Source: a virus. Taken from it: a stretch of 64,000 nucleotides of DNA. This document shows positions 29,176-64,000 of the stretch, one piece after another. The DNA is taken from positions 9,638 through 73,637 of the IMG/VR virus record IMGVR_UViG_3300036670_000256; one strand, written 5' to 3'. The translations under genes and the position numbers were made by a program. The notes under the pieces are model-generated. The model was given only the letters and a program-made list of their open reading frames with translations. It was not told the origin of the DNA and did no database searches. How positions within the stretch are numbered: position 1 is the stretch's first letter; the number at the start of each line of letters is the position of its first letter.

Positions 29176-31412
29176 CGGTCTTGCATTCTTTTTTTCTCTT
29201 GCAGAAATATGTTATAAATAGTTGGATCAACTCCTAAAAATTTTACTTCTTTTTCAAATTCGCTTTGTCTTTTTAGAATATCAGTTTTTTTATTTACTTT
29301 GACATCAATATATTCCTTGTACTCTTGAGGGTTTAAATCTCTTTCTGGATGAAATACTTGTATTGGAGAATAATCATCATCGTAAACGTTATTCCTTAAT
29401 TTACCATCTGTATCGACGTAATAACTTCCTAAAGTTTTATCGTAATTATACATGCTTATTTCAGAAGAACCAACTTCAATATCTTCTGTTATTTCGTCAA
29501 AAATATCCATTCTGTGTAATAAGCAAATACCTAAAGTCATAGCTATATCCGTATTGCCATCGCCAAATTTAATTAGATCTAGAATTACATTTTCAAAATT
29601 ACATTTGAAAATGTTTTCTTTTACTTCTGATTTCAACATTTTAACTAGAACAGGTTTTACTTGTCCAGTCATTTTTACACCATCTTTGTTTTTGTGATTA
29701 GTAGTTCCGGCTTCTTCAATATCTGGTCTACCTTTAATATATTTATAAGCTTTAACATCGTAGAAGTATCTTAAAATATGAAATTTTGTATACTCAAATA
29801 ATATTTCTAAATCCCAATAAACAGCAAATTTTACAGCATTTTCATAAAATACATCATCATCAAAAGAACCATCGCCGCGCTCGTGTAATACTCCTACCGG
29901 TTTATTAAATTCTCTAGTTGGTCCTGAAAAACAACGATACGCCATTACGCAACCAGAAGATACTTGGTTTGTGTTTTTCTTGTCGTCGTCAACTTCTTCA
30001 TCGTAACTATCACAACCGCCAATATCGGGTTTGTAAGATAAGTGTAGAACCGATTGATTAATTGGTGATGCATCTTTCCAAACAGTTCCGTTTTCTTTGT
30101 CTTCTACAAATTTTACTTTTACGTTATGTGCAATTCTAATTTTAGTTTTTTCTTTTGTGTTTTTACATCGTTGAAGTAATCGAATAACTTCTTCCGTATC
30201 TACCCATTCTAATCTTCCTTGCAATACTGGTTCGTCAAATTGACCTAAACTAATTTCTTTTAATTGAAAGTTAAGTTTTGCTAAGTCTAAAATTCCACCT
30301 TTAGTTTTTAAGAAAACCTCAGCCGGTATCATTGGATAAGATTGAATATGTTTGATGTAAGTATCTTTAGCTTTAGAGGCTCTTTTTCTTTCTTCTAAAA
30401 TATATTTTTTGGCAACTTCGCGATCTGTAACTCCCGTTTCATGGTTAAAAAATGAAATTACTTTTCCTGTTTTTTCGTCAGGAATTCCATCACCAGGATA
30501 ATAATAATTTGCAGGAATAAATACTGGTTTCAAATTATAAGCTTCATGGTTATCCCACATTTCTTTGAAACCTTTTGCACCTTTGTCGATTTCTCCACCG
30601 GTTCCGTATACCATTGGAACACCAAACTGATTATGTCCATCGCGAAAACATGGTTCTGTTGCTTTGTAAGATGCTGTTGAATTTTCAAACAATCCCATTT
30701 CCTCAAAATACATTTTGGAATAAGAACCTCCTTCAAAAGCGGAACTATCAGCAAACATGGTTTTGATTCTCAATAAAGATTGAATACCACATTCTTTAGT
30801 TTGCTTGTTAATTAAATTTTTATAGCCTTGTTTTAATTCCTTATCGTTTTTTAAAATATTACCATTGTAATAAGCTGGATGCACATTTTCAAGTGAGAAT
30901 TTTAATTTATCATAAAACTCCTGAGCTTTATCTTCTTTACCAGCACATAATCCAATTAAATTATGTTGAAAAAATGTCATTTCATAATTTGCATCCAGTA
31001 CATTTATTTCTGACAAACCTACACGTCGAGGTTTTGTAATAATCATTCCGTAGCCATGATTTTCAGCGCCTTCCATTTCTAAAAACAACCAATGATCTAA
31101 ATCTCTATAAAATGGATTTATTGGCCTTTTTCTTTTTCCGCCTTTTGGCATACCAAGTATTTTGCAGAAGTTTAAATAATAAAAGTGCTTTCCTGTTATT
31201 CTAGGCATTCCTTTTGGTTGATATCCTTTGTAGCAATAGTAATCCATTTCATGCCAAAAATCATCGTAAGCTAAAGTACCTGGATTAAGTTCCGTAGATA
31301 ATTTTTTAATTCTTTCGTTGAATAATATTGGTTGATACAATTTAGGATTCCAGCCTGATTTTTTGCTTAGTCTAAAAATGTCTGGAATTTCTATGTTAGG
31401 GAATTGAGCCAT
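29172..31412 (-). CDS. terL: Terminase large subunit
   Basis: ITGKHFYYLNF, Walker A-like KPRRVGLS, Walker B YFEEMG, YGTGG, nuclease GGCDSYD. Confidence 0.92.
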   Translation of the reverse strand: MAQFPNIEIPDIFRLSKKSGWNPKLYQPILFNERIKKLSTELNPGTLAYDDFWHEMDYYCYKGYQPKGMPRITGKHFYYLNFCKILGMPKGGKRKRPINPFYRDLDHWLFLEMEGAENHGYGMIITKPRRVGLSEINVLDANYEMTFFQHNLIGLCAGKEDKAQEFYDKLKFSLENVHPAYYNGNILKNDKELKQGYKNLINKQTKECGIQSLLRIKTMFADSSAFEGGSYSKMYFEEMGLFENSTASYKATEPCFRDGHNQFGVPMVYGTGGEIDKGAKGFKEMWDNHEAYNLKPVFIPANYYYPGDGIPDEKTGKVISFFNHETGVTDREVAKKYILEERKRASKAKDTYIKHIQSYPMIPAEVFLKTKGGILDLAKLNFQLKEISLGQFDEPVLQGRLEWVDTEEVIRLLQRCKNTKEKTKIRIAHNVKVKFVEDKENGTVWKDASPINQSVLHLSYKPDIGGCDSYDEEVDDDKKNTNQVSSGCVMAYRCFSGPTREFNKPVGVLHERGDGSFDDDVFYENAVKFAVYWDLEILFEYTKFHILRYFYDVKAYKYIKGRPDIEEAGTTNHKNKDGVKMTGQVKPVLVKMLKSEVKENIFKCNFENVILDLIKFGDGNTDIAMTLGICLLHRMDIFDEITEDIEVGSSEISMYNYDKTLGSYYVDTDGKLRNNVYDDDYSPIQVFHPERDLNPQEYKEYIDVKVNKKTDILKRQSEFEKEVKFLGVDPTIYNIFLQEKKRMQDR

Positions 31413-37876: not shown

Positions 37877-38245
37877 ATGAAAATTAAAATGATCCTTAGA
37901 AAAGCTGGAAATGTAGTAGTAAACTCAACATGTTCCACAATTGGCGCTTTACATTTTGTAACAGACACAGCAAGTGACATCTTGCTACACGCCGAAGCGT
38001 GCATCATGCACCGCGTATATGGCGAAGACAAAGACGAATGTAAATTACGTCGATGTATTCAAACGTCAGTTTATCAAGGCCACGTTCTTGATAAGCTTGA
38101 CGCTATCAAAGATTTGAAAAATCAGGTAGCCAACAAGCTACCTTTCAAATCTAAAGAAGAATCGGAAGTTAATGAACTTCCACCTTTAGTTGTCGTAGAC
38201 ACAAAGTCCTACGACGAAATGATGTCTAACCTTAAACAAGCTTAA
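37877..38245 (+). CDS. Early hypothetical protein (paralog of 37034..37282)
   Basis: Shared H..D...AE..I..G.D..E...R..T..Q...K..AIKD pattern. Confidence 0.7.
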   Translation: MKIKMILRKAGNVVVNSTCSTIGALHFVTDTASDILLHAEACIMHRVYGEDKDECKLRRCIQTSVYQGHVLDKLDAIKDLKNQVANKLPFKSKEESEVNELPPLVVVDTKSYDEMMSNLKQA

Positions 38246-39663: not shown

Positions 39664-40214
39664 ATCTACTACTAATAGATATGGCCTTTTTTATTTCTAC
39701 AAACTTAATTATTTCACATATTATGTGCAAGAATTAACGTGTTTAATTTAACACAATATGGGAATAAACTGTAATATACTAGTATTTAGTGTTTTATAAT
39801 GTAACATATTATGGTAAAGAATATTTTTTAACGAATCCTTGTTAAGTACTATGTTTACTGGTGCTAACAAAGGTTTTAATTAAAAAAAAAGCAAATGCAG
39901 TTGCTATATAGAATCATATTATAATAACGTTGGTCACTTACGTGACTATAATAATAACTATAGTAGATAACCTTGCCTTGCTCACTGACCACTCCTTCGT
40001 CGTGTTCATTACAAGGCTTTGTGATAGACTTGTTGGTATTGTTATTATGGTATTATGACATGAGTAGACAATTAATATTGGTGTTGATATGGTATATAGT
40101 AGTTATTTACAGTTATTATAATTATGTAGATAATATGTTGATAGTTTATATCATTGGCATTTATGGTTATGAAGAATTTTTTGGTATTAGGTTTTTAACA
40201 ATTAAGTTTATATT
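39664..40214. other. Non-coding AT-rich region with multiple palindromes; candidate replication origin
   Basis: About 550 bp with no convincing gene, short inverted repeats, base-composition switch. Confidence 0.45.
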
Positions 40215-60924: not shown

Positions 60925-61428
60925 ATGAAAAATATAGAATTAGAAAATCATCTGAAAGATAATTTAAGCTTATCAGATTATCAATTGTTGATTACAAGTG
61001 AAGAATTTTGTTATAAAGAAGGTAAATTAATTTTTGATGCTACAAAGTTTAAAAAGGAACTGATCAAGAAAATAAAAGAAAATTCTAAATTAGCTCAACA
61101 AAGAATTGATGTAAAATTAAATCTTTTAGTACCTACTACTGGAGATTTTTTAAAAATTGGCAAAGAATACTATAGATTAGTTTCTGTATTTCATTCACAA
61201 GGTATTTTTCAATATTGTCATGATGGTAGTTTTTACCTTAATGAGAATGGAAATTGCGGTTATTCTGGAGGATTTTGCTTTGATCATGGTAGTAATTTTA
61301 AAGCAGAAGAATTAAAGGTTACAAATAAATTTGAAATTGGTAGATTTTGGTTTTTTTCTCAAGACAAAGCCAAGGCACATAACGGAGTGTATTTTAACAA
61401 TAAATTTAAAGTATGGAAACTAAAATAA
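60925..61428 (+). CDS. DUF4121-like protein
   Basis: PTTGDF...GSFYL...YSGG...GRFWFF...AHNGVYF. Confidence 0.55.
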   Translation: MKNIELENHLKDNLSLSDYQLLITSEEFCYKEGKLIFDATKFKKELIKKIKENSKLAQQRIDVKLNLLVPTTGDFLKIGKEYYRLVSVFHSQGIFQYCHDGSFYLNENGNCGYSGGFCFDHGSNFKAEELKVTNKFEIGRFWFFSQDKAKAHNGVYFNNKFKVWKLK

Positions 61429-61433
61429 AAGCA

Positions 61434-61613
61434 ATGGCTTATCCTTACGATCACGATGATGATGGATATTTGGACAACGATTTTGAACAAGATTATATTC
61501 GAAACGATGACAATGATGATGATGATGATGATGATAACTATTATGATGATGATAATTTAGGAGGAACTGGACATGGCGACAAATCATATTCTGACGCTGA
61601 TAATTATTTATAG
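61434..61613 (+). CDS. Very acidic 59-aa peptide
   Basis: MAYPYDHDDD...NDDDDDDDNYYDDDN; (GAT)n run. Confidence 0.55.
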   Translation: MAYPYDHDDDGYLDNDFEQDYIRNDDNDDDDDDDNYYDDDNLGGTGHGDKSYSDADNYL

Positions 61614-62035: not shown

Positions 62036-62278
62036 ATGAAAACATTTAAAAGAAAAAATTTAGAAGAAATTGTTTATCAAAACGAAACTTACAAAGTAAA
62101 CATTTCAATTAGCTCAAAATTAAAAGCTCCAAATGGTAGTTTAGAAAACGTAAAAATAGCTTTAAAAGAAAAAAATTTAAAAGCTATACAAGTTCATTGT
62201 ATGCATAATAATTTAATAGGAAAATCAGATTTTCATGGAAAACCTTATGTTCCTAATGTTTGGATATTTACAAACTAA
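62036..62278 (+). CDS. Hypothetical protein
   Basis: Coupled ORF. Confidence 0.6.
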   Translation: MKTFKRKNLEEIVYQNETYKVNISISSKLKAPNGSLENVKIALKEKNLKAIQVHCMHNNLIGKSDFHGKPYVPNVWIFTN

Positions 62279-62377
62279 TTAATTAGATTAGGCGGTTTTA
62301 CTTTGGTTTTGCCGCCATATTTTTTAACGTTTTGCAGCTAACTTGTATATATAAAAAACACTAACAATATTTTAATT

Positions 62378-62866
62378 ATGAAATACTTTAAAGTAAACAG
62401 AAAAAAAGAGAAGAATGACATCAAGAAATTGATTAAACTGCTAAAACCGATTATAACAAAAGATACTGTTATTGTAAATTGTAGTCCGGATTACTCGTCT
62501 ATTATTTCTCAGCAAGTGATTCACGCATATTTCGACAATCCTTTAACGATGATTAATTTTGAGATGCCGTTTCCTAATACTCCATTTGAATTAGAATATC
62601 CTGAATATTGCCGAAGATTTACTTTGAATTTATTAAGAAACAAGCATCATGTTTTTATTGATAGTGGCGTACTTAGAGGTAGAAACTTTAAAACGCTATA
62701 TGATACTCTTGTAGATTTTAGCTATACAAAATTTACATTCGCTTCGCTATATGTTCAAGATGATGCGATATTTACTCCTGAGTATTACGTAGAAAAATTT
62801 AATAAAAAAGACGAAGGAATGTTACTGTTCTGGTGGGAAAATAAAAAATGTACTTTATTTGATTAA
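62378..62866 (+). CDS. Type I phosphoribosyltransferase-like protein
   Basis: HVFIDSGVLRGRNF PRPP-loop-like motif, FASLY...PEYY, FWWE. Confidence 0.6.
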   Translation: MKYFKVNRKKEKNDIKKLIKLLKPIITKDTVIVNCSPDYSSIISQQVIHAYFDNPLTMINFEMPFPNTPFELEYPEYCRRFTLNLLRNKHHVFIDSGVLRGRNFKTLYDTLVDFSYTKFTFASLYVQDDAIFTPEYYVEKFNKKDEGMLLFWWENKKCTLFD

Positions 62867-62891
62867 TTATGATAAATACGAACATAAAAAT

Positions 62892-63158
62892 ATGATAGAT
62901 TTTAAAGAATACAGGAGAATTAAAATTGCAGAAATGCGAGAAGTAAGTGAAAAAGATATTAATGTTTTTAATAATCATGGATTTATACATATATCAGAAT
63001 ATCCATTTGGTTATAACATTTCTATTTCTAATGCGGACAAAGATAATGGAAGCCCTAAAATTGGCGATATGATAGCAAGGAATCCAAAAGACTATTCCGA
63101 CCAATGGTTAGTAGCTAAACAATATTTCAAAGATAATTTTGAGCAGTTTGTTGGGTAA
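62892..63158 (+). CDS. Small phage protein (GDMIARNP...WLVA..YF..NFE motif)
   Basis: Recognisable recurrent phage motif; ATG 62892. Confidence 0.65.
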   Translation: MIDFKEYRRIKIAEMREVSEKDINVFNNHGFIHISEYPFGYNISISNADKDNGSPKIGDMIARNPKDYSDQWLVAKQYFKDNFEQFVG

Positions 63159-63165
63159 GCTATCA

Positions 63166-63604
63166 TATAACGTTTGCGAGTTGTAGTAGTTGCAAAATTA
63201 ATCACAAATAACAACAAAAATTATGAAAAATGTCATTGAATTATTACTTGATAAGAAAAAAGAATGTGAGGATATTCTAATGTTTCTTAATGGAAACGAC
63301 AAGGAATGTGCAACATTAATTCCAGAAATAGACCAAGCTTTACAATTACTACAACCCGCTGTTGTAGGGCGAAGCGAACAGTGTGGCAAATGTACTGAAT
63401 CAACAGGTGAAACCAAATTATGGTGTTGCAACCACTGTGGCAGAAGAACAGAATCTTTCTAGCCACATTGCCTACAACGTTGTCGCGGCTTTGTGATGTT
63501 GCCGAAAAACACACACTAATTTTTAAATTAAAGACAAATGAAAAAAGTACAAAACAATACCAAAATTAAACAATTAACCCAACTATTGTATAACCGCGGT
63601 TAGC
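63166..63604. repeat. Interlocked attC-like inverted-repeat array
   Basis: AAC/GTT junctions with paired arms 63176-63192/63343-63359, 63361-63387/63462-63478 and 63484-63493/63589-63598. Confidence 0.65.
63223..63462 (+). CDS. Chimeric small ORF spanning an attC-like junction, C-terminal Zn-ribbon
   Basis: Helix, then LQLLQPAVVGRSEQ (encoded by the repeat), then CGKC...CCNHC. Confidence 0.65.
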   Translation: MKNVIELLLDKKKECEDILMFLNGNDKECATLIPEIDQALQLLQPAVVGRSEQCGKCTESTGETKLWCCNHCGRRTESF

Positions 63605-63638
63605 AAATCGTTGTGGGAATTTAAAACAAAACGTAATT

Positions 63639-63863
63639 ATGAACTCAAACAGAATTAAAGAAATACAAAAACAAACTGCTTATCCTGAAAGTAGAAGCGT
63701 ACATCAAGGATTATTACAAGTTTGGAATGAATGCCAACAAGAATTTAATAAAGACATTAGAGAAATGCTGATTGTTTACGAATTAAAGGTGAGATGTTGT
63801 AGTAACGAACAAGCTGAAATAATGGTAGATAGTTATTTAGCGGTTGAAAACTTTACAAAATGA
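63639..63863 (+). CDS. Hypothetical protein
   Basis: RIKEIQKQTAYPESRSVHQGLLQVWNEC. Confidence 0.65.
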   Translation: MNSNRIKEIQKQTAYPESRSVHQGLLQVWNECQQEFNKDIREMLIVYELKVRCCSNEQAEIMVDSYLAVENFTK

Positions 63864-64000
63864 TAAATATTATTCCAATAAACGATTTGGAAGAACACGA
63901 GGAATTTTCAACTTGCAAATGCTGTCCAAGTTTAATAATTGAAAACGGAGAAATGATAATACTTCACAATTCATTTGATAAGCGTGAGATAATAGAACTT
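63860..64000 (+). CDS. Small His/Cys protein, truncated by the window end
   Basis: MINIIPINDLEEH...CKCCP...HNSFDKRE; ATGA overlap. Confidence 0.55.
   Translation, partial: MINIIPINDLEEHEEFSTCKCCPSLIIENGEMIILHNSFDKREIIEL

Follow-up and report, generated by a model that had tools for sequence, protein, structure and literature searches.

The closest described systems are the attC arrays of integrons, especially those of the sedentary chromosomal integrons of Vibrio, whose attC sites (Vibrio cholerae repeats, VCRs) are homogeneous. Folded single-stranded attachment sites are also known from CTX-type phages, where they are used by host Xer recombinases. Here we describe attC-like hairpins and small genes near the right end of a 64,000-nucleotide (nt) stretch of phage DNA, hereafter the window, which comprises bases 9638-73637 of the 73,637-bp virus record IMGVR_UViG_3300036670_000256. 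Positions are those of the window unless given as genome positions. The region is likely a small array of cassette junctions of attC type that has partly decayed, and a host tyrosine recombinase would act on it in trans. The array of this phage is probably either a relic or active only now and then. As a system, it is a variant of an integron-like cassette array in which the genes are flipped and the loops are coding.

Similar to integron attC sites, the hairpins have conserved AAC...GTT ends and an imperfect palindrome that is kept as structure and not as sequence, with lengths of 51-130 nt. Also as in integrons, sites in the array are hybrids while a cassette's own ends are complementary, crossovers fall in the AAC/GTT core, a tyrosine recombinase is found beside host arrays and near-identical sites are joined to unrelated genes. 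Different from attC, however, the spacer of the family is a one-sided 4-nt bulge, and conserved mismatches replace the extrahelical bases. Moreover, the phage genes are flipped, so the site is upstream with a start codon in its loop, and one hairpin of the window, Unit A, is ~197 nt long. Compared with the sites of CTX-type phages, the hairpins are similar in that those sites are also single-strand hairpins of ~150 nt whose centre is bulged and on which a host tyrosine recombinase, absent from the phage, acts. The arms of the family, however, differ from a candidate Flavobacterium dif site beyond TAA, and the sites bound cassettes rather than mediating integration of a genome.

Integrase-less clusters of attC sites (clusters of attC sites lacking integron-integrases, CALINs) have been reported in virulent phages, with 17 CALINs in 10,705 phage genomes (PMC9892861, Front Microbiol 2023). 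One of these phages, Polaribacter phage P12002L, has two methyltransferase cassettes, and one attC site was recombined by IntI1 (PMC9892861). As far as the passages of that paper on phage CALINs go, the two sets of sites are alike in being integrase-less, of attC type and positioned between small genes, often those for DNA methyltransferases, in lytic Flavobacteriia phages. Different from the system described here, Flavobacterium is not named in the main text of that paper, and its passages on these sites are without start codons in loops, flipped polarity, natural breakpoints and host arrays. The PeSLs (promoter early stem-loops) of T4-type phages consist of a promoter and a terminator hairpin and recombine by homology, and mini-circles have been reported (PMC2839356, PMC4122927). 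The hairpins resemble PeSLs as repeated intergenic elements at the borders of small genes that are shuffled within the plastic regions of lytic phage genomes. They differ from PeSLs in that a long-range covarying stem encloses the start region and that crossovers fall in a 7-nt core. When compared with PeSLs by eye, the element was found to have -33 and -7 type motifs 23-31 nt apart, a stem that encloses the start codon and no T-run end. Our literature search found no paper on this hairpin family in Flavobacterium phages or chromosomes.

The hairpins of the window and their family

The original prediction, made from the window's sequence alone, proposed interlocked attC-like hairpins, designated Units A, B and C, and three AAC|GTT junctions. 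These sequence features were found at the places given there. Unit A (63168-63364, plus strand) is a family-type hairpin. It consists of a 5' foot (63168-63172), a bulge (63173-63175), a 5' arm (63176-63196), a 142-nt loop that holds the ATG at 63223, a 3' arm (63339-63359) and a 3' foot (63360-63364). Its arms are paired at 18 of 21 positions and are flanked by TAACG and TGTTG. A scan for the pattern of foot, 3-5 nt, 20-nt arm, loop, arm and foot gave 18/20 stem pairs for Unit A, and only one of 100 Markov-simulated genomes reached 18 (p about 0.01). The stem of Unit A was present in the minimum free energy (MFE) and centroid folds of both strands (z -1.7 to -2.0). In addition, Unit A carries, by eye, a G.T wobble at the position at which the family has one. 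Unit A escaped the covariance model of the family; its 142-nt loop is longer than those of the family.

Unit C (63473-63602, plus strand), a family member by sequence, has a 5' foot at 63475-63479, a 5' arm at 63485-63504, a worn 3' arm at 63578-63597 and a 3' foot at 63598-63602. It matched the family covariance model, which was built without the window, at 77.3 bits (E 7.6e-15) and was the sole significant match in the window. Its ends are as the original prediction had them. The feet were TAACG/TGTTG for Unit A and CAACG/GGTTA for Unit C. The ATG in the loop of Unit C (63538) opens a frame of only 21 amino acid residues (aa), with its stop at 63601-63603.

Unit B is the body module from GTT to AAC (63361-63478, plus strand), whose two ends are complementary over 8 bp plus a wobble. 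Its outer 8-mer GTTGTAGG (63361-68) is the exact inverse of CCTACAAC (63471-78). With the wobble included, the 3' foot and flank of Unit A (63360-68) pair with the 5' flank and foot of Unit C (63471-79), with a compensatory change in the first foot pair. This first helix fits the family-wide rule of module-end complementarity described below. The second helix predicted for Unit B, a 9-nt pairing with 8/9 matches, is present, but in our own reading of the alignment it is not kept in the single homologue, IMG/VR locus L142. The predicted junction at 62323 was not significant with the covariance model (13.5 bits, E 1.7), and the foot-stem-foot scan found no complementary 3' arm for it.

An 18-mer of the window (63487-63504) was present in 54 IMG/VR contigs. 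The flanks of these copies were nearly identical for ~130 nt, from TAACG to TGTTA, followed by complete divergence into different genes. A sequence-only profile identified several full, more divergent copies per contig, all on the same strand and one ahead of each gene. The element stands before genes in the accessory-gene arrays of Flavobacterium phages, and in phages it is always on the sense strand. The family plan comprises a 5-bp foot (TAACG with TGTTA), a 4-nt bulge, 20 stacked pairs and a loop that usually holds a start codon. In 55 of the 59 common-type copies, the frame that begins at the loop ATG runs on past the 3' foot. Three different frames are used (49, 4 and 2 copies, respectively), and conservation is thus at the nucleotide level.

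The covariation of the arms expected by the original prediction was found among related copies. In a MAFFT alignment of 82 copies, 17 of the 20 stem pairs covaried. The cells changed on both sides numbered 137, compared with 30.5 +/- 3.9 in shuffles, none of 500 of which reached the observed value. The covariation score was 0.231, compared with 0.02-0.08 when the partner was slid. In a sequence-only alignment of 31 divergent copies, 78% of the pairs were Watson-Crick and 11% were G.T, compared with 22-30% Watson-Crick with a shifted partner. Moreover, three non-Watson-Crick stem positions (G.T, C.A and G.T) were nearly invariant among the 82 copies, and the TAAC...GTTA foot pairs were kept in 79-81 of them. 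The 4-nt bulge is one-sided, the sense strand folded slightly better in four of six copies, and the G.T wobbles favour the sense strand.

The family is also found in bacteria. A reading of the element as phage-restricted came from an 18-mer scan of bacterial genomes, in which 7 of 47 matches were the element, all on small contigs of metagenome-assembled genomes (MAGs). This reading was overturned by covariance-model matches in 123 of 151 Flavobacterium genomes.

Compact hairpins of 51-58 nt, with the same feet, bulge and stem and with a loop of 2-9 nt, were observed on the minus strand of Polaribacter phage P12002L at 30008-30058 and 38035-38092, between methyltransferase or Mom-like genes. 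The family thus includes short forms without a start codon. P12002L thus has hairpins of the family plan, which may be the two published P12002L sites.

Profile and foot-stem-foot scans found no further full hairpin copy in the rest of the 73.6-kb phage genome. One foot-stem-foot candidate, in 396 nt of intergenic DNA at the head of the plus-strand block (39926-40140, 17/20 pairs), was rejected as being at chance level, with 17 pairs reached in 8 of 100 simulations. Scans of the window for exact k-mers and direct repeats found no repeat family. The Rfam scan of the window gave nothing at gathering score and only two chance-level matches.

Module boundaries, exchange and fusion

The evidence for breakpoints and crossovers comes from related phages and not from the phage of the window. 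The breakpoint set consisted of ten Baltic Flavobacterium phages, all with a leftward arm that contains methyltransferases and small genes; around indels, their identity is 95-100%. Among the 93 distinct breakpoint contexts, 89 were no more than 30 nt from a 5' foot (random mean 14.7, maximum 26), and only 8 were near a 3' foot (random mean 15.4). The left ends of homology pile up at foot position 0. Three indel events were read base by base, and all three join inside the 7-nt TAACGTT. In the first of these, the parental copies share TAACGTT alone, with no other flanking homology. Gain and loss of modules at the AAC|GTT foot, which the original prediction had proposed, is thus seen between these phages. 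In the Baltic phages, hairpin and gene have moved as one in recent events, with the crossover at the 5' foot; events at the 3' foot are less frequent or date further back.

The ends of the modules also match each other. The 8 nt after a 3' foot and the 8 nt before the next 5' foot were perfect 8/8 complements in 14 of 53 consecutive pairs, compared with 0.7% of random pairs, and 13 different 8-mers were involved. The two flanks of the same hairpin, however, showed a complementarity of 3.91, equal to the random value of 3.90. The sites in the array are therefore hybrids, and it is the module's own ends that match, which is the logic of integron cassettes. Given that the ends of a module are complementary to each other and not to those of its neighbours, a full site arises only once the module's own ends meet, as they do when an integron cassette is excised.

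The open reading frame (ORF) 63223-63462 (79 aa, plus strand) shows how modules may be combined. Its codons 1-46 come from Unit A (loop and 3' arm), and its Cys-rich C-terminal 33 aa come from the body module; the frame reads through the junction as LLQPAVVGRSEQ. The body module (63361-63478) is common to locus L142, with ~80% identity by eye, and the flanks are unrelated on both sides. The homology begins at the 3' foot and ends at the next AAC, and upstream of it L142 has an unrelated hairpin and N-terminal half. The body module has no start codon of its own. Sharing of this module with L142 and its lack of a start codon thus mark ORF 63223 as a hairpin/leader module fused to a body module. 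The ORF is assembled across the junction, and its halves vary combinatorially, both in keeping with the original prediction, since the same body module follows a different hairpin in L142.

Similarity of metagenome contigs to the phage stops at 63485, 63588 and 63604/5; for these contigs, uncovered parts are uninformative and circle junctions cannot be displayed. It is precisely in methyltransferases and other small accessory genes that the Baltic phages differ. Their methyltransferase content was linked to plating efficiency by the authors who described them, and the words intergenic and hairpin are absent from that paper (PMC7077304). The interpretation of the array as a cassette-shuffling system is supported mostly by related DNA, and the phage of the window may have shared in this activity.

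Candidate host recombinase and competing explanations

As in the window, where the original prediction had noticed no integrase, none was found in the complete phage genome. Four near-complete phages that bear arrays were also without tyrosine recombinase, serine recombinase and Y1 transposase. A complete integron, with intI, attI and a cassette promoter (Pc) beside the array, was not found in the phage genome, which gave no match to PF00589; as in a CALIN, only the sites are there. NinG/Rap, considered as a lead to a phage-encoded nuclease, matched none of 5 records.

In Flavobacterium chromosomes, the same hairpins form arrays beside a recombinase. Three host loci contained 23, 20 and 5 co-oriented hairpin copies, respectively, with a tyrosine recombinase of 345-364 aa located 0.8-1.6 kb from the end of the array. 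These array-linked recombinases scored 220-221 bits on NF040815 ('tyrosine recombinase/integron integrase', cut-off 220). Different from integron integrases, however, they scored 202-206 bits on TIGR02249, below its cut-off of 265, and matched positions 2-176 and 238-315 of that model only, with the IntI-specific insertion (177-237) unmatched. A homologue was within 11 kb of a listed hairpin in at least 8 genomes, with the places compared by eye. In the host locus L155, the five longest ORFs of the array are on the strand opposite to the modelled strand, which is the usual layout of integrons, and the phage genes are flipped relative to it. A host-supplied enzyme, for which the original prediction allowed, is plausible, given that Flavobacterium chromosomes carry arrays of these hairpins next to an integron-integrase/Xer-like recombinase.

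The host Xer/dif site was also considered as a relative of the hairpin and was rejected. A candidate Flavobacterium dif (chromosome dimer resolution) site, the same exact 19-mer, was found in 18 of the 26 genomes searched, with a 28-31-nt consensus in the 11 loci read (L129-L139), and its arms are unlike those of the hairpin beyond the final TAA.

Mechanistically, each junction would be a hairpin folded in one DNA strand, which is the sense strand in the phage. The host recombinase would act in trans on folded single-stranded phage DNA and may cut in the TAAC foot. With the phage genes facing the opposite way compared with host arrays, the hairpin is upstream, and its loop provides a leader together with the start codon. 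New protein fusions such as ORF 63223 would thus arise when modules are exchanged at the 3' foot.

Several observations weigh against an attC-type array served by a host enzyme. Neither a tyrosine recombinase (no PF00589 match) nor a serine recombinase nor a Y1 transposase was found in the complete phage genome. Among 301 genomes of the genus Flavobacterium, only one has a match to the classical integron integrase model above its cut-off, and homologues of the array-linked recombinase (E <= 1e-80) occur in 64 of the 151 genomes, fewer than the 123 with hairpins. The co-occurrence of recombinase and hairpin across genomes, judged by eye among the matches listed and with draft MAGs included, is weak. 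Moreover, the stem of Unit C is worn (15/20 pairs including 4 wobbles, by eye), and the fold of Unit C is not above that of shuffled sequences. As single hairpins of single-stranded DNA, the long-loop copies are weak (z -0.95 for the common copy), and in RNA form they fold at least as well. Classical extrahelical bases are lacking, and the spacer is one-sided. Finally, a single indel was observed in the phage's own lineage, in one metagenome contig of depth 2.9. In it, 62868 is joined to 63860, and the joint is at a 10-nt repeat of two gene starts and not at a foot. This skip of 991 nt indicates one relative that lacks a continuous block comprising ORF 62892, the two hairpins and ORF 63639.

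The alternative that survives best, although unlikely, is compatible with a host-driven cassette array. It holds that the hairpin is mainly an RNA element of a polycistronic early transcript, with an A-rich start region in its loop or acting as a processing site, and that turnover is a by-product of copy-choice or microhomology joining at the foot. The constant sense orientation in phages, the loop ATG frame that crosses the 3' foot in most common-type copies and the strand preference of the wobbles are all consistent with this, as is the finding that the stem was the MFE RNA fold in all four non-window copies tested. However, the five longest ORFs of the L155 host array are opposite to the modelled strand, so the hairpin there would not be in the sense transcript in its modelled form, and the compact 51-58-nt copies have no start region in their loop. 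An RNA element also leaves unexplained the crossovers inside the 7-nt core without flanking homology and the recombinase next to host arrays.

It is far less probable that the hairpins are PeSL-like conserved intergenic repeats whose modules are exchanged by ordinary homologous recombination, without a site-specific enzyme. The repeats are ~130 nt long and often >85% alike between phages, some breakpoints are up to 30 nt inside the 5' arm, and the one indel of this lineage uses a 10-nt repeat, all of which homologous recombination could accommodate. It is contradicted, however, by the copies of the first Baltic indel, which share only TAACGTT, and by the pile-up of left homology ends at the foot, and it doesn't predict module-end complementarity with 13 different 8-mers. 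With regard to PeSLs, no pair of a sigma-70 type promoter and a terminator was recognised in the consensus, which was read by eye with no promoter scan made. That the hairpins are chance inverted repeats together with ordinary promoters and terminators in AT-rich intergenic DNA is scarcely credible, for although the hexamer AACGTT is not enriched (28 in the window compared with 20.6 +/- 4.9 expected), the 62323 unit is not significant and the fold of the whole 451 nt is only modestly better than shuffles (z -1.9 and -1.8), chance is refuted for Unit C by its E value against a model built without it and for Unit A by the simulated genomes, and hundreds of relatives covary.

Beyond the attC-type array of the window, a wider proposal is possible but tentative. 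It holds that one integron-like gene-capture system is common to Flavobacteriia and their lytic phages and is run by a host Xer/IntI-like recombinase, with phage arrays that are integrase-less and have flipped genes. The hairpin would also serve as a portable start of translation with an N-terminal leader, and through exchange at one foot or the other, anti-restriction kits would be reshuffled and fusion proteins built during infection. If a host recombinase reshuffles modules in lytic phages, this would account for the fast swapping of methyltransferases and small accessory genes in Flavobacteriia phages. It would also take integron biology beyond recombinases of the classical IntI family and provide a recombination site that also encodes protein starts. 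The system is testable, since phage-host pairs have been isolated, the junction sequences are known and there is a candidate enzyme.

Gene context and minor features of the window

The array is among the last small genes of a plus-strand block. The ends of the record repeat over 127 bp, and the right end of the window therefore continues into genome position 128. The features between 62291 and 64000 are all on the plus strand. After ORF 62036-62278, a terminator-like GC hairpin with a T run (62291-62325) lies upstream of the foot at 62325 and is outside the cassette family. It is followed by the doubtful junction (62325-62353), which consists of a TAACG foot and an arm-like start and includes a 17-nt string (62337-62353) that is exactly repeated at genome 160-176, past the wrap. 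Each copy of this string is after a foot-like AAC, with a gene start 25-45 nt on, and may represent either a promoter or another type of junction.

Between the doubtful junction and Unit A are ORFs 62378-62866 (162 aa) and 62892-63158 (88 aa). In metagenome contigs, ORF 62378-62866 has a different gene order and a different 5' end. The module after Unit C (63603-64000) contains ORF 63639-63863 (74 aa) and an ORF from 63860 onward that crosses the end of the record; its stop codon (genome 143-145) directly precedes a foot-like TAAC at genome 146-149. No Pfam family was found for four cassette ORFs, including 62378-62866 and 62892-63158, and no tRNA genes were found in the window.

The weak DNA matches of the window were to Flavobacterium and Cellulophaga phages. 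The intergenic region 63463-63638 had 81-90% identity to intergenic sequences of Flavobacterium phages that are otherwise unrelated, with 90% identity to Lillamyvirus phages at 63588-63637. Moreover, 63636-63742, at ORF 63639-63863, showed 84% DNA identity to Cellulophaga phage phi13:2. The rest of the 2.5 kb was without matches like these two.

Two further features were observed in the window. A box resembling (A)CCACAAAAACAAAT is directly after the stop codon of several plus-strand genes, often before a GC hairpin (38541, 42007, 47722 and 50463, and weaker at 63463). Finally, a 66-aa ORF at 61413-61613 is very Asp-rich over a (GAT)n-like run, of which the opposite strand is a His-rich frame.

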